Source: an uncultured Gammaproteobacteria bacterium
GTDB lineage: Bacteria > Patescibacteriota > Microgenomatia > UBA1406 > HO2-37-13b
Length of the DNA: 48,248 nucleotides
Reading direction: 5' to 3'
Assembly (NCBI GenBank): GCA_964636045.1
Contig: CAZWRH010000001.1
Span: forward strand, 1-48,248
Part shown: positions 31,197 to 41,830 of the stretch, one piece after another
Layout of the letters: the number at the start of each line of letters is the position of its first letter
Position numbering within the stretch: position 1 is the first letter of the stretch
Position numbers and translations under genes: made by a program
Notes under the pieces: generated by a model
Databases searched by the model: none
What the model was told of the DNA's origin: nothing
What the model saw: the letters and a program-made list of their open reading frames with translations, nothing else

Positions 31197-31283
31197 CGGA
31201 AAGGGAGGGATTTGAACCCCCGATGACCTTTCGGTCATACCGTTTTTCGAGAACGGCCCGTTCAACCACTCCGGCACCTTTCC
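31197..31283 (-). tRNA. tRNA-Ser (anticodon CGA), class II with long variable arm; CCA not encoded
   Basis: Folds by hand into a cloverleaf. Acceptor GGAAAGG/CCTTTCC, 3-bp D stem, anticodon stem CCGTT/AACGG with loop CTCGAAA, variable arm TGACC-GAAA-GGTCA, T arm GGGGG-TTCAAAT-CCCTC, discriminator G. Length 87 nt. Confidence 0.92.
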
Positions 31284-32368: not shown

Positions 32369-33703
32369 TTATTCACTCTTTTTTTTTAGCAAAAATAATG
32401 ATTCAAAAAAACTTGGAAGTTTAAAAAATTTTCTAACGATAATTACGTTTTCAAATACTCTAAACATATGATTCCAAAAGCTTTGTCTAAAAACTGAAAT
32501 ATGAGAAAAGTCATCTCCATGAGTTATATTTACCCAATGGTTTTCTTTAGTATAAATTTTATGAAGTATCCATTTTTTTGAAACCCTAATACTTTCCTCA
32601 AGTGATTTTTTTAACTTAGATCTTTCTATGTGTTCTAAAACATCAAATGATAATACCAAATCAAAAGATTCGTCTTTATAAGGAATTTTGGTGATATCTC
32701 CATATTTTATGTATGGTTTTAATTCTTTATCCGCTACTTCAAGTGCATATTTAGAAATTTCAATTCCATATGCTTCAATATCAAGTTTTCTTAAATACTT
32801 AATTAAACTTCCATTACCACAACCAATATCTAAACAATTTTTAGGATTAATAAATGTTTTTATCCAAAAAGCTCTATACATGTTAGCCAAATTTTGAAGA
32901 GTTTTTCCTAAAAATGATTCTGTATATGCGAGTGGATATTCTCCTTTTTTTCCTTCAAAATATTCTCTGTCGTAAAAGGAATTATCAACTTTAAATGGAG
33001 TAATAACAGTTCCAATAAATGGTTCCCCATTTAATACATTTTCTAAATTTCTAAATTTTTTTCCATGAGCAACGATAACGGTAAGTCTTTGTTTTTTTGC
33101 AAGTTGAGACGCGATAGGATCAAATGGTGCGTTTACTCCAGGAACCCATTCATCACCAACAATTTTTTCAAAAAAATCCCAAGTAGTTTTTTTTATTGGT
33201 TGTGCATCTTTAAAAACTCTTGGATCTTTGTCAAAAACATAATCAATATTTGACATGTTTATAATTACTGAAGCATGATAGTTTATGGCTAAAACTGTTG
33301 CACAATAATCAGTAGATCTTCCTGGTTTCCAGCCAGAACCAATAATAACTGGTTCTTTCCAATTTTTTATTTTTTTTGCGTAGTCTTTAATAATTACTGG
33401 ATGTGCGATATCTTGAAAAATAGTTCTTACAAGATGAGCATTTAGTCGAGTACTATGAATTCCTAGCCAATCCAAATCGTCATTAGTCAATTCTCCAATA
33501 ACACTTTTTCCAGCTCCAATATAACGCCTTGCAATTGATCCACCTCCAGTTACGATGATAAATCTTTTTCCTTTTTTAATTTGATCCCTAACAAAAGAAT
33601 TGAGTTTTTTTAGAAAATCAATATCAACTTCATCTCCAGGAACAATTAAACTTCCACCAACTGACAAAATTATTGTTTCTTGGTTTTTTTTATGAAATGA
33701 CAT
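32369..33703 (-). CDS. Fusion protein: archaeal-type UMP kinase / amino-acid-kinase-fold domain (N-terminal, ~aa 1-235) + class I SAM-dependent methyltransferase (C-terminal, ~aa 270-444)
   Basis: N-terminal part: ILSVGGSLIVP...FIIVTGGGSIARRY...GSGWKPGRSTD. C-terminal part: CLDIGCGNGSLIKYL (motif I) and FDLVLSFDVLEHI (motif II/III region). Confidence 0.7.
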   Translation of the reverse strand: MSFHKKNQETIILSVGGSLIVPGDEVDIDFLKKLNSFVRDQIKKGKRFIIVTGGGSIARRYIGAGKSVIGELTNDDLDWLGIHSTRLNAHLVRTIFQDIAHPVIIKDYAKKIKNWKEPVIIGSGWKPGRSTDYCATVLAINYHASVIINMSNIDYVFDKDPRVFKDAQPIKKTTWDFFEKIVGDEWVPGVNAPFDPIASQLAKKQRLTVIVAHGKKFRNLENVLNGEPFIGTVITPFKVDNSFYDREYFEGKKGEYPLAYTESFLGKTLQNLANMYRAFWIKTFINPKNCLDIGCGNGSLIKYLRKLDIEAYGIEISKYALEVADKELKPYIKYGDITKIPYKDESFDLVLSFDVLEHIERSKLKKSLEESIRVSKKWILHKIYTKENHWVNITHGDDFSHISVFRQSFWNHMFRVFENVIIVRKFFKLPSFFESLFLLKKKSE

Positions 33704-33717
33704 TTTTTTATTGGCGT

Positions 33718-33744
33718 AAAAAAACCCCCTTTTGTTTGGGGGTT
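33718..33744 (-). terminator. Intrinsic-terminator-like hairpin in the 5' leader of the UMPK::MTase gene (candidate attenuator)
   Basis: The minus strand reads AACCCCC-AAACAAAA-GGGGGTT followed by a U-run (7 U in total after GGGGG). It ends 14 nt upstream of the ATG at 33703. Confidence 0.6.
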
Positions 33745-33891: not shown

Positions 33892-34746
33892 ATGAGGCGC
33901 TTAAGACTAACTATAACCCTAAAAGAATCTACAGTTTTAGATGTTGATAAATTAATCGATGGACAAAAACTTAGAAATAGATCTCATGCTATTGAGTATA
34001 TTCTTAACCAAAATTTAAACCAAAAAGTATATAAAGCAATAATTCTTGCTGGAGGTCGAGGAACAAAACTTAGACCATACACTTTAGAAACTCCAAAATC
34101 TCTTCTTTTAATCAAAGGACAACCTATTATTAAATATTTAATTGAGAATTTAAAAAAATCTGGAGTAACTGATATTATGATCTGCGTTGGCCATTTGGGA
34201 AATAAAATAAAGGATTATTTAAAAGATGGAAAAGAATTTGGAGTAAAAATTTCTTATTCAGAAGAAAAAAAACCACTTGGAACTGGTGGTGCAATTTCTA
34301 AGATAAAAGATTTTATTGATGATAAGCCATTTTTAGTTTTACATGGAGATATTCTTATTGATTTAAATTTAAAAGATTTGCTTGAATATCATAGCGAACA
34401 GGGTGGCTCAATTATAGGAACAATTGCATTATCTCAAGTCAATAATTCTTCAATGTGGGGACAGTTTAGAATGCATGGTACAAAAATAGTTAATTTTATT
34501 GATAAAACAAAAAAAGGAGAAGAAGAGAGTCATTTAATTAATACTGGAGTTTATGTTTTTGAAAAGAAAATATTTGATTATTTTCCAACTGGCCAAAAAA
34601 CTTTTTTACTTGAAGATATTATAAAAAATTTAATTAAAGATAGAAAAATTACTGGCTTTGTTTTTGAAGGTCAATGGTTTGATGTTGGAACGCCAGAAAC
34701 TTACGAAGAAGCGATAAAATCTTTTTTATTAAAATCCTCCACCTGA
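33892..34746 (+). CDS. Fusion protein: N-terminal ribbon-helix-helix (CopG/Arc/MetJ-like) domain + sugar-1-phosphate nucleotidyltransferase
   Basis: aa 1-45 read MRRLRLTITLKESTVLDVDKLIDG...NRSHAIEYILNQNL (beta-alpha-alpha RHH pattern). This is followed by ILAGGRGTKLRPYTLETPKSLL (the NTP_transferase G-loop) and ...LGTGGAI...VLHGDIL.... Confidence 0.7.
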   Translation: MRRLRLTITLKESTVLDVDKLIDGQKLRNRSHAIEYILNQNLNQKVYKAIILAGGRGTKLRPYTLETPKSLLLIKGQPIIKYLIENLKKSGVTDIMICVGHLGNKIKDYLKDGKEFGVKISYSEEKKPLGTGGAISKIKDFIDDKPFLVLHGDILIDLNLKDLLEYHSEQGGSIIGTIALSQVNNSSMWGQFRMHGTKIVNFIDKTKKGEEESHLINTGVYVFEKKIFDYFPTGQKTFLLEDIIKNLIKDRKITGFVFEGQWFDVGTPETYEEAIKSFLLKSST

Positions 34747-35049
34747 TAATCCAAAAATTGTTGCAATAATTTTTGTTAAAACATAAGAACTAATCAGTAA
34801 TATAAATCCAATTAATGCAGCTGTAATTTTTGCTTTTCCGTTTTCAATTTTTTTAGCATCACCAAAAGACAATAAATAATTGTATCCACCCCAAATTAAA
34901 TATAAAAAAAGCAATATTCCTCCAAGTGGAAAAAGAAAGGTTAGAGTTTTGGTTATGACTGATCCAATATTGTTAAAGCTACTATCAAGAGGTCCTTGAA
35001 TGGTTTGACTTCCAACTGTGATACTTTGAGCTAAGATTTTATTTTCCAT
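34729..35049 (-). CDS. Small two-TM protein resembling VirB2/TrbC-type 'T4SS pilin' proteins common in CPR genomes
   Basis: LFPLGGILLFLYLIWGGYNYLLSFGDAKKIENGKAKITAALIGFILLISSYVL: two hydrophobic helices around a short G-D-x-K-K loop. The family assignment is from memory, not a search. Confidence 0.5.
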   Translation of the reverse strand: MENKILAQSITVGSQTIQGPLDSSFNNIGSVITKTLTFLFPLGGILLFLYLIWGGYNYLLSFGDAKKIENGKAKITAALIGFILLISSYVLTKIIATIFGLSGGGF

Positions 35050-35690
35050 ATTGTATTAACTTTAATAATTATATAAAAAAATAAATTAATTATTATTGAT
35101 ATTAAAAAGTATTTATTTATGTCTATTAAAAAATTTGTAAAAGTGTTTATTTTAAAAATAGATCTTATATCTATGTTTAAAATATAAAAAATACAACCCA
35201 ATATCAATATAAACCCAATAAAATAATATAAATCTTTTAAATCTTCTTTAGAAGAAAACATGGATGAAGATATTGAAAAAAATAAATAGCAAAATAATAG
35301 GTTTGTTATTAAAGAGTTTGATGGAAAAAAATTAAAATGGAATATATAATAAAAAAATCCAATCCCAAAAAGTAGGGGAGATATTCCAATAACAAATCCT
35401 CTTAAAAAATCAGTTTTTTCAATTGAAACAGATCCAAGAGTTACTTCTTTATTTCCAATTTTTGGAATTAAATCAATTTTGTTTATCTTTGTTAACAGAA
35501 ATAATGCACTAAATAGATGAGATAATTCATGAAAAACGGTACCAGGTAAATATAAAATCGATATTAAATAATAGCTAATTTTTGAATTTTTAAAACTTTT
35601 ATAAAATAAATAGAAGATTTTTTTTTGAATATAAATTGAAAAAAAATAAATTACAAGTATTTGCAGAATAAGTAAAAAAAAATATTCCAT
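35031..35690 (-). CDS. Polytopic membrane protein with an HExxH motif (M50B/site-2-protease-like putative zinc metalloprotease)
   Basis: GTVFHELSHLFSALFL, with HExxH at 35517-35531 at the edge of a TM helix, followed by a ...KEVTLGSVS... loop and 4-5 further TM helices. Confidence 0.45.
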   Translation of the reverse strand: MEYFFLLILQILVIYFFSIYIQKKIFYLFYKSFKNSKISYYLISILYLPGTVFHELSHLFSALFLLTKINKIDLIPKIGNKEVTLGSVSIEKTDFLRGFVIGISPLLFGIGFFYYIFHFNFFPSNSLITNLLFCYLFFSISSSMFSSKEDLKDLYYFIGFILILGCIFYILNIDIRSIFKINTFTNFLIDINKYFLISIIINLFFYIIIKVNTIWKIKS

Positions 35691-36049
35691 TATTTAGCTT
35701 CAGATGTGGCAGTTTTTGCCTCACTTGTTGCTTTTTTGATTGGGGTTACTATTATCGTTGGAGAAGGTGACGCGATCTTTGCTTCTGGGGTAGATTTTTT
35801 TATTGTGCTTGGTGTTGGTGTAGATAAAACTTCTTCCTCTTCGGTTGTATTTGGGATAATAACCTCTTCATTTTGAGGTTCTTCAATAATAGGTGGTTGA
35901 TTCTTTTTTTGAATATAAATAAATAAAATTACTGAAAAAATAGCTGCAACTATTGTTAAAGCAACTAACAAATAATAATTCATATTAGAAGAATTCTTAT
36001 TTGGATTTTTTATCTTTTCTAAATCAATTGGTGTAAAATTTTTTTCCAT
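35690..36049 (-). CDS. Single-pass membrane protein with a Pro/Thr/Glu-rich extracytoplasmic tail (tandem ATSEAK)
   Basis: 119 aa with a TM helix at about aa 25-47. Its start is 1 nt after the AAA+ gene's stop, and its own stop overlaps the next start (TAATG). Confidence 0.5.
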   Translation of the reverse strand: MEKNFTPIDLEKIKNPNKNSSNMNYYLLVALTIVAAIFSVILFIYIQKKNQPPIIEEPQNEEVIIPNTTEEEEVLSTPTPSTIKKSTPEAKIASPSPTIIVTPIKKATSEAKTATSEAK

Positions 36050-36050
36050 A

Positions 36051-39000
36051 TTATATTTCTTTATTATTAGTGCTTAAACATTTAGGACAAATAATCGTTG
36101 AATTTTTTACTATTTCAGTTTCAAAGTTGTTTTGACATTTTTCACATTGAAATTTCTTTATAATTTTATTTTGCATTTTTTTATCAGAAAATTCAAGCTT
36201 TTCAATATTAAATATAAAATGTTCTCCTTCAAAATCTAAATTTATCTGATCTGATTCTTCAAGTTTTTTTTCAATGATTAGAGTTGATATTGGGTTTTCA
36301 ATCAAATTTTGGATAGTTCTTTTTAGTGGTCTAGCACCATAAATTGGATCAAATCCAACCCTAACAACCTCTTTAATTGCATTCTCTTTATAGTTGAATC
36401 CGATATTTTGTTCTTCAAGTAATTTTTTTAAGCCTTTTAATTGAAGATCAACAATCTTTGTCATGTGTTGATATTTTAATGGTTCAAAAATAATTACTTC
36501 ATCAAATCTATTAATAAGTTCTGGTTTAAAAAATTTTCTAAGTTCCAACATTACTTTGCTTTTCATATTTGAATAAGTATTATTTTCAAGTTCGACTTCT
36601 TTTTTCTTTTTTTGTTCAAGTTCTTTTTCAAGAGGAAAATCTTTTCCAAAATATTCTTTAAGTAAACTCATTTTGAAGTTTTCTTCATTAATTTTTCTTA
36701 TCCAAATCTTTTCTCCTGCGATTATATATTCATTTCCAGATGGATCAAAGGTGTGAATGTCCCAATAATTAAATGGTAAATTCAAATCTTCTTTATTTTT
36801 AAAATAATTTTTTAAAGTACCAGTTTCCCAATCATTTTGACCTTCTTTTCTTTTCCAATATCTATCTTTAAAAGTGATAATTTCATATTCATCCGCAGTA
36901 AATGTATGGGTTTTTAGTTTTGCAGTTGGTAGCTGTTCATCAGGTGAGTCTGGCATAGCATTAACTACAACAGAATCTTTAAAATATTCAATTAGATTAA
37001 TAGTTTTCCATATTTTTGAAGTGGTAGACGATCTTATATATGCAATTTCTTTTAATGTAATTATTTCAATTCCTTTTTGAGAAATTGCGTGAGTGTCAAA
37101 ACCAGAAATTGGAAAGCTATAATTTGAATCTTCAATTTTTTCTCCAGCAAAATAATCATAAAGCATTTTACTTTGCCATGTTGTTGTTTTTGTTGAATCT
37201 AAATTTGGTTGTTTTTCAAAAATTTTATTTATGATTGTTAACATTTCTCTTCCTCGAGGTGAGAAAGTATATGTTGATAAGATAGTTGGTTCTTCAATTT
37301 CAACTTTCCCAGTTTTTAAAATTTCATCTTGAATAAGTGTACTTCCTATATTTGAAGTACAAATAATTACTGTATTTTTAAAAGAAATAGTTCTTCCTTT
37401 ATTATCTGTTAGTCGTCCATCATCAAGTATTTGAAGAAGGATATTAAAAATATCTGGATGAGCTTTTTCTACCTCGTCAAATAAAACAACAGAGTAAGGT
37501 TTTCTTCTAACTGATTCGGTAAGTTTTCCACCTTCATCATATCCAACATATCCAGGAGGTGCACCAAGTAATTTAGCAACTTCATGTTTTTCCATGTATT
37601 CAGTCATATCAAGCCTTACAATAGCTTCTTCCTGGCCAAATAATATTTCTGCTAAGGTTTTAGCAAGTTCTGTTTTACCAACTCCAGTAGGTCCCATGAA
37701 AACAAAACTTCCGATTGGTTTTTGAGTATTTTTAAGTCCAGCACGTCCTCTTCTAACAGCTTGTGCTACTGCTGAAACTGCAACTTCTTGATTAATAAGT
37801 CTTTCATGCATAATATCTTCAAGCTTTGCAAGTTTTTCAGTTTCTGAATCAGAAATTTTTGTGACTGGTATACCAGTCCAACGACTAACAATATCTTTAA
37901 TAATCTCAACACTAACAGATGAAGTTGTCTGACCTTTTTTTATTTTAAATTCTTCTTGTTTTTGATTTAACACTACTTGTAAATCGTCGATTTTTGGTTG
38001 AAGAATTCCAATTTTAACTTTATTTAGTGCTTTTTGAGCTTCTTGAAGTTCTTGTTTATATTCAGAAAGTCTTTCTTCAGTACTTCTTATTTCTTCAGGT
38101 AAAGAAATAAGTGGCAATCTAACAGCTGCTGCAGATTCATCAATTAAATCAACTGCTTTATCAGGTAAAAACCTATCTCCAACATACCTTTTTGATAATT
38201 TGACAGCTGCTTCAAGGGTATCATCAGGAATTTTTACCCGATGATATGATTCGTATTTGTCTCTTGTTGCTTTAAGCATTTTTATTGCTTGCTCTTCGGT
38301 AGGTTCAGGAACTAAAACTGGTTGGAATCGTCTCTCTAATGCTGCATCTTTTTCAATATATTTTCTATATTCTGTTAAAGTTGTTGCTCCAATTATTTGA
38401 AGTTCTCCTCTAGCGAGTGAAGGTTTTAAAAAATTTGAAGCATCAAGCGTTCCTTCAGCACCTGCTCCAGCTCCTACTAAATTATGAATTTCATCTATAA
38501 ATAAAATTATTTTTCCTTTTGCATTTTTAACTTCTTCGATTAATGACTTCATTCTTTCTTCAAATTCACCTCGATGAGAAGTACCGGCTAAAACGCTCAT
38601 TAAATCAAGTTGTAATATTTTTTTATCAAGCAATGATTCTGGAACTTCTTTTTTTACAATTTTTTGAGCTAATCCTTCAACTATAGCTGTTTTTCCAACT
38701 CCAGCTTCTCCAACTAAGACAGGATTATTCTTAGTTCTTCTTGATAGATTGTGAATAACTCTTTCAATAACATCCGATCTTTCAACAACAGGATCAAGAA
38801 GTCCTTGTTGAGCCTTTTGAGTTAAGTCGTTTGTAAATAATTCTAAAACACTTTTTTTCTTTTCTTTTTCTTCACCATTTACTCCTTCTTTTTTACCTGT
38901 AATTTTTTTATTTAATTCTTCTTTTTTTATACCGAGTTTAACCAAGATGTTAGCGGCAACACCTTCTTGTTCTTCAAAAAGTGACAATAAAATATGTTCT

Positions 39001-39569
39001 GGAGAAATAAATTCAAAACCCATTTTTCTAGCAGTAACAAGTGCTTTATCTAAAATTCTTTTAACTCTTGGTGATGGCTGTGGGTTGGTTGGTGCGGTTC
39101 CTTTTTTATAAATTTTATCTAGTTCTTGATCAATTATTTGAGGTTGTATTTTAATATCAACAAAAAATTTATATATTTCTGGATCAGTTAATAGTCCATG
39201 AAGCAAATGCTCAGTATCAACAAAATCATTTTGAAGATCTTTAGCTTTATTTTGAGCTATAACAAATACTTTATTGGATCGTTGTGTAAAATGAGTCATT
39301 AGATCAAGATCTGGTGCTTGAGGTGTTTTTTGAACAGGAGTCTCTTTTTTTTCTGTAGCAACAATTGGAGTCTCTTTTTTTTCTTCTTCTTCAATAAAAT
39401 GTGCTGTATTCAAATTGTTAGTTGATTTTTGAGTTACCTCAGCAACTTCTTCTTTAATAACAACTTTTTCATCTTGTTTGATGTCTGGCGGATTATTAGA
39501 AACAGCTGTTACTGGTTGATTTGGAGATGGGTTTTTAGAATTTGAAAACATATCAAAAATACCTGCCAT
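36051..39569 (-). CDS. Atypical ClpB/ClpC-family double-ring AAA+ unfoldase: disordered N-tail, Clp_N repeats, D1, short M-domain, D2 with a ~240-aa four-repeat insertion, C-terminal zinc ribbon
   Basis: Clp_N repeats are present (...TEHLLHGLL..., ...[10 protein letters not shown]...). D1 has Walker A GEAGVGKT and Walker [10 protein letters not shown]2 has [37 protein letters not shown] and the pore loop GYVGY, plus GARPLKR sensor-2. The preferred start is ATG 39569 (MAGIFDMF...). The track start at 39605 is a TTG that coincides with a TTGACA -35 box. Confidence 0.9.
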
Positions 39570-39576
39570 AATTTTC

Positions 39577-39605
39577 ATTATTAAAAAAATAAAAACATTT
39601 GTCAA
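39577..39605 (-). promoter_or_regulatory. Promoter TTGACA-17-AATAAT, 7 nt before the AAA+ gene ATG (39569)
   Basis: On the minus strand, TTGACA lies at 39605..39600, followed by a 17-nt spacer. AATAAT lies at 39582..39577, followed by gaaaatt and the ATG. Confidence 0.55.
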
Positions 39606-39634: not shown

Positions 39635-40375
39635 ATGAAATTTAGTAGGGGAATAATAATTTTTATATTTGTTTTTTTATTTTTAACTAAAATTTCAAAT
39701 CCAGTTTTTGCAGAAACTTCTTCTTTGCAAAACTCAAATTCTGCAAGTTATTTTGATATTTTTTATGATTTAATAAAAAAACTTTTAACTTTTTCTACAG
39801 ATGACTTAAATAGCGAAACTACCACGTCAAGTTCTGTGGGAGGTGGTGGAGCAGGAGCTTCTCGAAGCTGGGATCCATTACCAAATATTGATGGAAATAC
39901 TTTGGAGCAAAACAAAGCATTAGCTGAACAAATTTTGGCAAATTCTAATATAGATTTAAATTGTTATACTGATAGTTGTGGTCATAGTTCAGCTGAAGTA
40001 ATTTCTTCTTTAAAAAATGGTCAAGCACCTGTTATTTGTTCTGGGGGTTGTTCAAATTGTGCTGCTGGAGGACCTTCTGGATCAACAACAATGAATCCAA
40101 AAGTTTTGCAAGGAATTTTAGAAGTTGGTAAAACTGATTCTATTTGTATAACTGCTTTATCTAATGGAGTTCATAGTGTTGGAAGTACTCATTATGATGG
40201 AAATGCAGTTGATATTGATGCAGGAGGAAAAAGCGCTGGAGATTTGCAAAGAATTAGAAATCAATTACAAAGTTATTGTGGTTGGGCTATTTGTGAGCCT
40301 CCAGGAGGAGGATCTGATCCAAGTTGTTCAACTGCAAGTCATATTCATTGGACTTGTGCACCTGGTGGTGATTAA
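39635..40375 (+). CDS. Secreted Cys-rich LAS/M15-type peptidoglycan peptidase (VanY/D-Ala-D-Ala carboxypeptidase-like fold)
   Basis: Signal peptide ending ...NPVFA|ET, the S-x-H-x-x-G-x-A-x-D motif as STHYDGNAVD, a downstream H-x-H (SHIHW), and 10 Cys. Confidence 0.6.
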   Translation: MKFSRGIIIFIFVFLFLTKISNPVFAETSSLQNSNSASYFDIFYDLIKKLLTFSTDDLNSETTTSSSVGGGGAGASRSWDPLPNIDGNTLEQNKALAEQILANSNIDLNCYTDSCGHSSAEVISSLKNGQAPVICSGGCSNCAAGGPSGSTTMNPKVLQGILEVGKTDSICITALSNGVHSVGSTHYDGNAVDIDAGGKSAGDLQRIRNQLQSYCGWAICEPPGGGSDPSCSTASHIHWTCAPGGD

Positions 40376-40380
40376 TTTTT

Positions 40381-41223
40381 ATGAGAAAAATTTTGTTTAT
40401 TTTAATTATATTTGCTTCAATTTTGGGAAATTCTGTTTTTGCTGTAGAAACAAGCAATGGTCAAGTGAATCAAAATGCTGTTGGAGTTTTTATAGATTTT
40501 TTAAATAAATTTCTAAATGCTCCTGCTGAAAATGATGATGTTGGTTCAAATTCACAAAATAAAACAAATGGATTGTCTCCTTTTGCAGGATCTGTTACTG
40601 ATATTAATCAATTAATATCTCCAGACACAATGTCTCCTGAGGCGGCAAATATGATGGGTGCAGTTGCAGGGTGTATTAATAATAGAGCCGCTTATGAAGA
40701 GGCAAGTAGATATACAGGGGCACCTTGGCAAGTTTTAGCAGGTATTCACTATCGAGAAGGAAATTGTAATCCAAATGCTTCTTTAGTATCAGGGCGGCCA
40801 ATCGGAGAAGCGGAGCCTGACATGGAGTATAACTGTTCGTCTGCAATTGAAAATGGTTTAGCTATTCCAGTTAATGGTGGTTGTGGCTTTGCCACTTTAA
40901 CACAAAGTGCAATTTATGCGGCTAGACATTTAATTGATAAGATTGGTAAAGTTCCTCAATCTTTTGAAGAGTTAGGAACTGCATTATCAAGATATAATGG
41001 AGGAGGAAATTCTAATTGTGGGAAGACGCCTTATCCATATTGTCCTCCAGCTTTTTCTGGTGATGACGATCCATATCCAATGGCGCTTTTGGATGAAAAA
41101 CACAAAACAATGTACGTTATATATTGTGAAGATGGGGTAGCAAATACTGCCGGATGTCCAAGAGTTGATCAAAATCCTGGAGTATTAACAGCTATTTCTC
41201 TTATATCATTTGCAACAAAATAA
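40381..41223 (+). CDS. Secreted Cys-rich lysozyme-like / SLT-like lytic transglycosylase candidate
   Basis: Signal peptide ending ...NSVFA|VE; WQVLAGIHYREGNCNPNAS (an SLT-like catalytic-Glu context) and ...AARHLIDKIG...LGTALSRYNGGG (an SLT-like AYNAG region). Confidence 0.45.
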   Translation: MRKILFILIIFASILGNSVFAVETSNGQVNQNAVGVFIDFLNKFLNAPAENDDVGSNSQNKTNGLSPFAGSVTDINQLISPDTMSPEAANMMGAVAGCINNRAAYEEASRYTGAPWQVLAGIHYREGNCNPNASLVSGRPIGEAEPDMEYNCSSAIENGLAIPVNGGCGFATLTQSAIYAARHLIDKIGKVPQSFEELGTALSRYNGGGNSNCGKTPYPYCPPAFSGDDDPYPMALLDEKHKTMYVIYCEDGVANTAGCPRVDQNPGVLTAISLISFATK

Positions 41224-41224
41224 A

Positions 41225-41830
41225 ATGGAAAAACTAGATGATAAAAAAGTTTTTATAATCTTTTCAGTATCAATTGTTTTAATGATGCTTTTAATTCTAT
41301 TTTTTTCTATTAATACTAAAAAAATAAATGTTGCTAACAATGAAGAGTCTCAATCTGAATCAAATGTAAAAAAAGACTATTTAGCCGAACAAAGAAATAA
41401 AAACGCTAATTTACCAATGCCTATAAAAAATATTCCTACACTTTCAGTAAGTGAAGGAAAAGGAGTTGATATAGCCTCAGATGAAGTTGTTTCTTCGAAA
41501 ACAGAAATTTCTAAATTATCAGAAAAATTACCTTTTAATAAAAAAATTACTACTTCTAAAGGATTATCTATTGAGATTATGATTCCAGAACAAAAGCTTC
41601 AAGATAATGATTTTTCATTGACAGTTTATATATTTGGTATTAATTATGAGGTTGAAAATGATTCTCGAGATTACCTTATTCAAAAAGTTTCTTTTCAAGA
41701 AGGAGCAAAAGAAGTGTTTAGTTTTTTAAAGCAAAATAATATTGACGTTACAAACTTAATAGTAAGATGGGGAGATAGAAAAAAAATTCGGGATAAAGCA
41801 GAGAATTGGCTTTTAGAGAGCGTAATGTAA
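41225..41830 (+). CDS. Membrane-anchored hypothetical protein (N-terminal TM, extracytoplasmic domain)
   Basis: ORF with an ATG at 41225 (MEKLDDKKVFIIFSVSIVLMMLLILFF...). The track start at 41210 is a TTG inside the previous gene. Confidence 0.55.
   Translation: MEKLDDKKVFIIFSVSIVLMMLLILFFSINTKKINVANNEESQSESNVKKDYLAEQRNKNANLPMPIKNIPTLSVSEGKGVDIASDEVVSSKTEISKLSEKLPFNKKITTSKGLSIEIMIPEQKLQDNDFSLTVYIFGINYEVENDSRDYLIQKVSFQEGAKEVFSFLKQNNIDVTNLIVRWGDRKKIRDKAENWLLESVM

Follow-up and report, generated by a model that had tools for sequence, protein, structure and literature searches.

In relatives of a Microgenomates genome, three consecutive genes form the smallest lasting unit of a four-gene locus. 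They encode a small single-pass transmembrane (TM) protein, a polytopic HExxH membrane protein resembling site-2 proteases (S2P) and a VirB2-like pilin of type IV secretion systems (T4SS), and they remain translationally coupled even at ~30-40% protein identity. The locus lies in a stretch of 48,248 nucleotides (nt), here called the window (GCA_964636045.1, contig CAZWRH010000001.1, positions 1-48,248, forward strand), whose source is labelled an uncultured Gammaproteobacteria bacterium with the GTDB lineage Bacteria; Patescibacteriota; Microgenomatia; UBA1406; HO2-37-13b. Relatives place the organism in Microgenomates, near Roizmanbacteria. The fourth gene, encoding a ClpC-type AAA+ unfoldase, precedes the three, and a preliminary description of the DNA had suggested that all four might work as one machine. 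The four genes are not one indivisible system. We consider, with a probability of about 50%, that the three membrane protein genes are a pilin-linked intramembrane-protease cassette for Patescibacteria T4SS, and that ClpC is their frequent but dispensable neighbour. The locus would best be classed as an accessory cassette that serves T4SS pilins with an S2P-like protease and in most cases lies behind an atypical ClpC.

A ClpC-anchored scan with one genome per species yielded 25 Microgenomates loci (numbered L001 onward, as are the loci found later). In 13 of them ClpC is followed on the same strand by the small TM protein gene (in some cases missing), the protease gene and the pilin gene. Three loci (L010, L014 and L016) have the pilin gene immediately after ClpC, with a 4-nt overlap of the two in L014, and in one (L006) it is divergent from ClpC with no protease gene between. 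Four loci are of a Gottesmanbacteria type (L008, L009, L011 and L019), in which the protease gene is convergent right after ClpC and the pilin gene is absent; one has no cassette gene by ClpC (L012), and the contigs of the remainder are too short to judge. In relatives, ClpC proteins share 58-77% identity with that of the window, proteases 28-40% and pilins 40-58%. Protease-anchored look-ups gave the Roizmanbacteria-type order again and the Gottesmanbacteria-type order three times. A metagenome scan with a 12-sequence protease sub-alignment then gave 80 loci in 60 clusters, 36 of them informative on both sides. The full four-gene order was found in 16 of the 36, the small TM-protease-pilin unit without ClpC in three, the protease gene convergent with an array of four pilin genes in two, and none of these arrangements in 15 (protease alone, ~40%). 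The preliminary description had suggested looking for the gene order in relatives, and there it is, in 13 genomes and 16 metagenome clusters. Most Microgenomates of the Roizmanbacteria type have the cassette right after their ClpC gene.

The unit formed by the three membrane protein genes without ClpC occurs in at least four lineages (L100, L103, L106 and L111), which speaks against a single four-gene machine. Each of these ClpC-less cassettes starts a separate unit; the genes before it are divergent and encode single-TM proteins, and RecF or UMP kinase is still downstream. Protease and pilin genes overlap by 4 nt in 36 of 44 loci, and small-protein and protease genes do so in 26 of 43. Within this sample rearrangements cut between ClpC and the cassette and never inside a co-directional cassette. 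The protease gene is also convergent with arrays of two to four pilin genes (L088, L134, L138, L140, L142 and L154), and it lies near PrgI, TraC-like and VirB4 genes in L085, L088 and the Gottesmanbacteria-type loci. L088 lacks ClpC, and there the protease gene stands between VirB4-TraC-like-PrgI and two convergent pilin genes; in L085, also without ClpC, it is followed by a gene for a 1104-aa protein and then by PrgI and a TraC-like gene. Because the coupling is kept, the cuts fall outside the cassette, and other pilin paralogues and T4SS core genes are paired with the protease, a functional tie between the protease family and T4SS pilins is supported.

We infer catalysis, substrate, membrane topology and any role of ClpC as follows. 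The protease site H54/E55/H58/D150 would lie near the cytoplasmic leaflet, beside a beta-hairpin, as in site-2 proteases. The enzyme would cleave or cull a membrane partner that is co-translated with it, be it the pilin or the small single-pass protein in type-II orientation, and might in this way control how much assembly-competent pilin is available to a T4SS whose genes lie elsewhere in the genome. The unfoldase ClpC would be a co-expressed neighbour, which at most handles cytoplasmic products or extracts membrane-protein fragments, and the cassette would not require it.

Several observations weigh against this reading. Fifteen of the 36 informative metagenome clusters and four further clades (L090-L093) have no pilin, T4SS gene or ClpC within ~8 kb of the protease gene, and the 15 stand-alone proteases have varied housekeeping neighbours with no recurring partner. 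Because of these, the protease family may have a general membrane role, with the pilin as one client or none. Neither VirB4 nor PrgI is present in the 48-kb window, and a pilin gene of the window's kind is found beside T4SS core genes only in related arrangements (L088). Membership in the S2P group is marginal (Pfam score below threshold, TM-score 0.25, no canonical LDG motif). The metagenome sample consists of the 80 best matches to the window protease and is biased to close relatives, and since the loci share ancestry, the counts are of non-independent events. Finally, each pairwise adjacency recurs without the third partner: ClpC-pilin in L006, L010, L014 and L016, ClpC-protease in the Gottesmanbacteria type, and protease-pilin elsewhere. 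This leaves room for a genuine ClpC link, which the cassette reading plays down.

The genes may also have no functional link, being four unrelated genes packed by genome compaction and retained by shared ancestry. The median same-strand intergenic gap in the window is ~15 nt, and unrelated neighbours are joined as tightly (the sigma-70 and UvrD-type helicase genes overlap by 8 nt), so tight spacing by itself is background. Of the earlier argument from spacing, the exact junctions therefore stand and their special tightness does not. Synteny of the relatives runs on through NTP-transferase, UMP kinase-methyltransferase and RecF: the same convergent NTP-transferase gene follows the pilin gene in 14 related loci (e.g. 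L002, L123, L127, L131, L146 and L149), and other relatives without it have the UMP kinase-methyltransferase gene next on the same strand. However, the 4-nt overlaps of the cassette are kept down to ~30% protein identity, in this sample the block breaks at one border only, that between ClpC and the co-directional cassette, and elsewhere the protease gene has other pilin paralogues as partners, oriented differently. A mere packing of unrelated genes is therefore quite unlikely. The signal above chance is the arrangement kept across other genomes, rather than the spacing.

The four open reading frames (ORFs) were found on the minus strand as first described, and their junctions were read in the sequence (Table 1). 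The ClpC stop codon TAA (36053-36051) is followed, after one base (+1 nt gap), by the small-protein ATG at 36049; the small-protein and protease genes share TAATG at 35690 (1-nt overlap); and the protease and pilin genes overlap by 19 nt (35031-35049). The 3' end of the pilin gene overlaps the convergent NTP-transferase gene (33892-34746, plus strand) by 18 nt. The four-gene locus was assembled identically in two other samples from separate sequencing runs. The four ORFs are real, and their co-transcription in this genome is very probable.

Table 1. Coordinates of the features discussed (positions in the window, or in the named locus of a relative)
Feature	Coordinates	Strand	Description
UMP kinase-methyltransferase	32369-33703	-	444 aa; fusion of an amino-acid-kinase (UMP-kinase-like) domain and a class I S-adenosylmethionine (SAM) methyltransferase
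Terminator-like hairpin	33723..33744	-	7-bp GC-rich stem, then TTTTT; role inferred only
VirB2-like T4SS pilin, PF18895	34729..35049	-	106 aa
Site-2-protease-like HExxH protein	35031..35690	-	219 aa
Small single-pass membrane protein	35690..36049	-	119 aa
ClpC-type class I Hsp100 unfoldase	36051..39569	-	1172 aa, corrected ATG start
ClpC-type AAA+ ORF as listed	36051..39605	-	1184 aa from TTG
Promoter-like element TTGACA-17-AATAAT	39577..39605	-	11/12 matches; function inferred
245-334-aa pilin-like proteins	L003:1523-2488, L016:1670-2407, L023:2035-2796, L025:1589-2323		In relatives
245-334-aa pilin-like proteins, continued	L096:557-1369, L103:2646-3650, L111:3617-4606		In relatives

The ClpC gene had been started at TTG 39605. 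Since the relatives have a conserved N-terminus, MAGFFDFIKK, and an independent gene call gave a product of 1172 aa, ATG 39569 is taken as the start instead. The element TTGACA-17-AATAAT, which is the best promoter-like match on the minus strand of the region, has TTG 39605 as the beginning of its -35 hexamer. Its -10 hexamer ends 7 nt ahead of the ATG, so the ClpC mRNA would have little or no leader, and a Shine-Dalgarno sequence is not seen before ATG 39569. The only promoter-like element had earlier been placed upstream of the AAA+ gene. That claim lacks support, because the number of promoter-like sites (36) equals that expected from shuffled sequence (35.7 +/- 5.2) and several minus-strand sites with 9-10 of 12 matches lie inside the cluster, one of them (36090-36063) just 5' of the small-protein gene. 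A scan of the region between 34729 and 39605 found no terminator-like hairpin, in agreement with the preliminary description. The first minus-strand terminator-like site downstream of the cluster is the hairpin at 33744-33723, a candidate transcript end that would be reached after ~1 kb antisense to the NTP-transferase gene. This hairpin sits between the divergent UMP kinase-methyltransferase and NTP-transferase genes. The promoter and terminator scans were discarded as proof of a single transcript, site counts being those of shuffled sequence.

The protease belongs to a large family. An exhaustive profile search found at least 950 representatives (50%-identity clusters) at E<1e-30 and 3550 at E<1e-3, and the 150 best family matches listed range from 201 to 265 aa in length. 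The family, which is new to curated models, is covered by neither Pfam nor NCBIfam; the superfamilies at the locus, namely the S2P clan, VirB2-like pilins and class I Hsp100, are known. Alignments of 23 and 67 members have the invariant motifs PGTxxH54E55xxH58 and MFSSxxD150. In the AlphaFold2 (AF2) model (pLDDT 93.7), the HExxH helix (residues 48-64) leads into a beta-hairpin (residues 69-90), after which come four further long helices. The HExxH zinc-binding motif lies inside a predicted TM helix, as expected of an S2P, and the invariant D150 lies at the start of helix 148-170, in a MFSSxxD motif instead of one of the (N)xxPxxxLDG type.

Similarity of the protease to known families is faint. 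The window protein scored 11.4 bits against Pfam M50B (cutoff 26, E=0.25) and did not reach the curated Pfam M50/M50B threshold. Among 23 members, six match M50B (best E=1.4e-4) and seven match M50 (best E=0.0092). The family profile matches 3b4r (MJ0392, the S2P of M. jannaschii) with E=2.5e-4 at profile positions 28-110, a weak and partial match that spans the HExxH helix and the beta-hairpin; against Aquifex aq_1964 the value is E=0.023. Because Foldseek of the model against PDB gave no match at E<=0.001, the structure search could not place the protein in M50. SpoIVFB (8vjl) was second in the PDB list, at a non-significant E=0.17 and a TM-score of 0.25, and a SpoIVFB-like protein was on top in a search of viral structures, also non-significant (E=0.096). 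The earlier label, M50B-like HExxH protein, thus holds for a polytopic, M50/M50B-like protein, but the likeness is remote and below the Pfam thresholds. The protease would thus be a remote relative, rather than an established member, of the S2P (M50) clan.

Site-2 proteases (MEROPS M50: M. jannaschii S2P, RseP and SpoIVFB; Pfam Peptidase_M50B) share with the family the HExxH motif in a membrane helix followed by a beta-hairpin, and the invariant Asp ~90 residues after HExxH. In size (~220 aa) the window protein is like the M. jannaschii S2P core (224-aa PDB chain), whose zinc ligands, which we take to be H54, H58 and D148, would correspond to H54, H58 and D150 here. The motif of the third ligand is different, MFSSxxD here and NxxPxxxLDG there, and the window protease has no PDZ or CBS domain. 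It differs also in its translational coupling to a pilin gene; our literature search found none described for any S2P. Because Lys/Arg-rich loops flank the re-entrant HExxH segment, the positive-inside rule applied to the predicted helices suggests an active site near the cytoplasmic leaflet, as in site-2 proteases. A site at this leaflet would make the pilin a candidate substrate, or else the small protein, provided that its N-terminus faces the cytoplasm. A 324-aa protein with a weak M50B match (P0101, L089), the most distant match to the protease profile, was placed outside the family; its context looks archaeal, its neighbours being NFACT, an XPB-type helicase and a SpoIIM-like protein. 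Given this context, organisms other than Patescibacteria may have a remote branch of the family.

At its N-terminus the small protein carries the conserved motif N(F/Y)TP(L/I)(D/N), followed by a single TM helix with LIQKK at its end and by a variable tail rich in Pro, Thr and Ser. The tail ranges from ~15 to ~90 aa among relatives, while head and TM helix are conserved. No family match was found for it in Pfam, NCBIfam, PHROG or PADLOC. Hidden Markov model matches to it occur in 30 of 53 informative metagenome clusters, always directly 5' of the protease gene. Site-2 proteases favour type-II single-pass substrates such as RseA, RsiW and FtsL. It is therefore conceivable that the locus is a module of regulated intramembrane proteolysis, in which the small protein, with a cytoplasmic N-terminus and its Pro/Thr-rich tail outside, is the protease substrate. 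Its conserved head and TM helix with a variable tail, and its nearly constant, translationally coupled place before the protease gene, would suit such a substrate of the favoured type. However, the small protein is absent from five of the 13 genome cassettes (L002, L013, L018, L023 and L025), its cytoplasmic part would be just ~25-30 aa, its topology is read from composition only, and no site-1 protease candidate was identified. We regard this module as unlikely. The more detailed version, in which cleavage frees the NFTPLD peptide as a signal or removes an inhibitor and the pilin is sensed or regulated cargo, is doubtful to the same degree.

The last gene had been called T4SS-pilin-like, and this is borne out by Pfam: the window protein scores 38.2 bits against PF18895 (cutoff 26.6, E=1.5e-9), and 35 of the 36 homologue-search sequences, the window protein included, match the same family. 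The AF2 model has helices at residues 28-59 and 65-99, that is, two hydrophobic helices with a short basic loop, as in VirB2-like pilins. The conserved Lys-rich loop SQGxPEKxKSAxAKIT lies between them. Among 52 unique orthologues, LAQ and GPL are conserved near the N-terminus and IFGxGxG(I/F) at the C-terminus. Inspection found no Sec-type signal peptide; residues 1-27 are hydrophilic (MENKILAQSITVGSQTIQGPLDSSFNN), as they are in the 52 orthologues. VirB2 and TrbC, in contrast, have a long N-terminal Sec signal peptide that is removed on maturation. The best pilin match in a Foldseek search of PDB was 8dfu, the conjugation pilus of A. pernix (E=1.9, TMq 0.54, TMt 0.66), and many unrelated helical hairpins score like it. 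Since this search gave no match at E<=0.001, the VirB2 fold is confirmed no further than the helical hairpin.

Relatives also encode proteins of 245-334 aa ~3-4 kb upstream of ClpC or of the cassette, with no counterpart in the window. These larger proteins combine a signal peptide with a Cys-rich domain and, at the C-terminus, a two-helix domain that resembles T4SS_pilin and ends in RIPGF(S/G).

The unfoldase has the Pfam domains Clp_N, two AAA+ modules, AAA_lid_9 and ClpB_D2-small. It begins with the peptide MAGIFDMF and a ~90-aa low-complexity linker, likely disordered from its composition, and continues with Clp_N, D1, a short M-domain, D2, D2-small and a C-terminal CxxC...CPxC zinc ribbon (36051-36200). 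Where the ClpP-docking loop should be, D2 holds a ~230-aa repeat insertion (~36600-37320). In an alignment of the window protein with Microgenomates relatives, Firmicutes ClpC and one Chloroflexota ClpB, the (L/I/V)GF ClpP-docking loop is absent from all ten Microgenomates homologues, while the Firmicutes ClpC carry LGF or IGF. The preliminary description was thus right in calling the protein an atypical unfoldase with a remodelled protease-docking face. Its M-domain is as short as in ClpC, ~60 aa under that of the Chloroflexota ClpB, and it scored 937.7 against TIGR03346, the ClpB equivalog (cutoff 1232.1); it is below every NCBIfam equivalog cutoff, including those of ClpB and ClpA. These values do not fit a ClpB disaggregase. 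Clp_N, two AAA+ modules, D2-small and the short, ClpC-like M-domain are shared with class I Hsp100 proteins (ClpC/ClpB), and identity to Firmicutes ClpC is 43-53%. In contrast to known ClpC, the window protein has no (L/I/V)GF loop and has the ~230-aa insertion at that site, an extra C-terminal zinc ribbon and a Phe-rich N-terminal peptide on a long linker. The lost loop, the zinc ribbon and the peptide raise the question of what the substrates are handed to.

One answer would be a split FtsH-like machine, in which ClpC docks through its remodelled D2 face, with insertion and zinc ribbon, on the HExxH protease and feeds it unfolded or extracted substrates. No aligned Microgenomates ClpC has the (L/I)GF loop, and most carry a zinc ribbon on the same face; the ribbon is kept in ClpC of the Roizmanbacteria type (most relatives) and in L087, and absent from L008. 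The Phe-rich N-terminal peptide is present in every Microgenomates ClpC examined (L001-L025, L081-L087 and L094-L162); it reads MAGFFDFIKK in Roizmanbacteria-type and MPxxLFNFxRYFKK in Gottesmanbacteria-type proteins. Behind it runs a long low-complexity linker, with (S/A)Y(N/S)GIGxPP repeats in many relatives, and on such a linker the peptide could be a membrane- or partner-binding motif. ClpC and the protease are adjacent in both types although their orientation differs, the genes being co-directional in Roizmanbacteria-type loci and convergent in Gottesmanbacteria-type ones. Against such docking, the cassette is found without ClpC, and outside these lineages the protease family is mostly without it. 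The repeat insertion occurs in some Microgenomates ClpC only, others having a short charged or low-complexity linker there, and the cassette follows ClpC both with and without it. The insertion is therefore irrelevant to the linkage, and the tie between insertion-bearing Clp and cassette suggested earlier is lost. The N-terminal peptide is present with or without an adjoining cassette, and together with loop loss it is found in ClpC that has no cassette nearby (L006 and L012), so that both look like lineage-wide traits of Hsp100. Synteny reaching into unrelated genes is a further point against docking. A split FtsH-like machine is unsupported and, in our estimate, quite improbable; if the ClpC link were physical, it would be a new membrane-proteolysis architecture.

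ClpC might act on the pilin rather than with the protease, extracting or recycling the VirB2-like pilin from the membrane for assembly or disassembly of the T4SS pilus. In variants of this idea, drawn by analogy, ClpC would stand in for a VirB11-type ATPase or act like ClpV of type VI secretion. To our knowledge, the monoderm-type T4SS has no VirB11-type ATPase. PrgI-TraC-like-VirB4 genes are divergent from ClpC in seven Gottesmanbacteria-type loci (L008, L009, L011, L019, L083, L086 and L087), with two further genes between in L086, and this adjacency of T4SS core genes to ClpC gives the pilin-assembly hypothesis indirect backing. The loci in which the pilin gene directly follows ClpC, or is divergent from it with no protease gene between, also fit. 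However, such direct neighbourhood is explicable by deletion of the middle genes. T4SS core genes occur with the protease or with pilins but no ClpC in L085 and L088, the window has no T4SS core genes, and its ClpC looks like the general Hsp100 of the lineage. We consider the pilin device very unlikely, and its variants equally so.

The widest of the alternatives is that ClpC, protease, small TM protein and pilin are one membrane-associated machine, in which the unfoldase powers extraction and processing of pilin for the T4SS. ClpC adjoins the cassette in most cassette-bearing loci, and the pairwise adjacencies are consistent with such a machine, as are the T4SS core genes that a sister lineage has next to ClpC in divergent orientation. 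Because the evidence on ClpC is mixed, we treat it as a co-expressed, possibly auxiliary neighbour and rate single-machine readings low; the complete four-part machine is unlikely. If true, it would be a new coupling of a class I Hsp100 to an intramembrane protease and a secretion system.

The cassette reading can be set beside known systems. VirB2-like pilins and pilin arrays are described as known parts of Patescibacteria T4SS, abundant in Microgenomates, and PF18895 is the family used there for pilin detection (Quinonero-Coronel et al. 2025, 10.1101/2025.01.22.634366); the window pilin belongs to this same family as the pilins of the MPF-FATA-like T4SS of Patescibacteria. The likeness extends to sister lineages, in which the protease and ClpC genes stand beside PrgI/TraC-like/VirB4. 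The window, on the other hand, has a lone pilin gene, remote from all T4SS core genes, and its product has no N-terminal Sec-type signal peptide. The genomic-context section of that paper, and its text on 'Clp' and 'peptidase', name no membrane protease, small TM partner or Clp neighbour of the pilins. Our literature search found no paper joining a site-2 protease with VirB2 and none linking Patescibacteria ClpC with pilins. A system of this composition was likewise not found described, as had been supposed from the start.

Membrane peptidases act on pilins elsewhere: the aspartyl protease PilD serves type IV pilins, and in RP4 the LepB-like serine peptidase TraF acts on TrbC. By analogy from general knowledge, the resemblance is the linkage of a membrane peptidase gene to a pilin gene. 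The catalytic class is different and pilin cleavage here is only putative. By the same analogy, the short N- and C-terminal motifs of the window pilin may be processing sites, although, as a further difference, its LAQ motif lies ~20 residues before the first TM helix and not at its edge. Cascades of regulated intramembrane proteolysis ending in a Clp machine are also known, as RseP then ClpXP and RasP then ClpXP; there, an S2P-type protease and a Clp unfoldase act on one membrane-anchored substrate. Their genes are not in one operon, however, and the unfoldase works with ClpP, whereas the ClpP-docking loop is missing here. A defence-system or prophage reading was set aside: in PADLOC and PHROGs the three membrane proteins had no match, and the similarity of ClpC was only that of AAA+ proteins in general.

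Patescibacteria depend on host cells, and T4SS genes and pilin arrays are reportedly essential in the one Patescibacteria lineage studied genetically. The locus is a concrete, testable candidate for the handling of VirB2-like pilins of the monoderm-type T4SS, and a large, unannotated, minimal S2P-like family adjoins pilin or T4SS core genes in several independent arrangements. In five of the seven Gottesmanbacteria-type loci, the S2P-like gene is the last of a convergent operon, after an unannotated 512-594-aa protein. Pfam gave no match for this upstream protein or for the 1104-aa protein of L085.

The rest of the window is chromosomal housekeeping, with genes for DnaK, PNPase, FtsK, MurJ, DnaG, sigma-70 and UvrD-type helicases. 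An Rfam scan of the window found only a tRNA-Ser at 31197-31283. The UMP kinase-methyltransferase fusion is kept downstream of the cassette in most relatives. Divergent from ClpC, three tight genes on the plus strand (39635-41830) encode N-terminally hydrophobic proteins of 246, 280 and 206 aa. None of the three has a Pfam match, and a PDB sequence search with the two secreted proteins encoded upstream of ClpC gave nothing significant. In the 246-aa protein, GSTHYDGNAVDI ... SHIHW is a putative counterpart of the signature SxHxxGxAxD / HxH found in LAS-type (M15-like) peptidoglycan peptidases. Proteins homologous to those of 280 and 206 aa are encoded upstream of ClpC in L002, L022 and L127.

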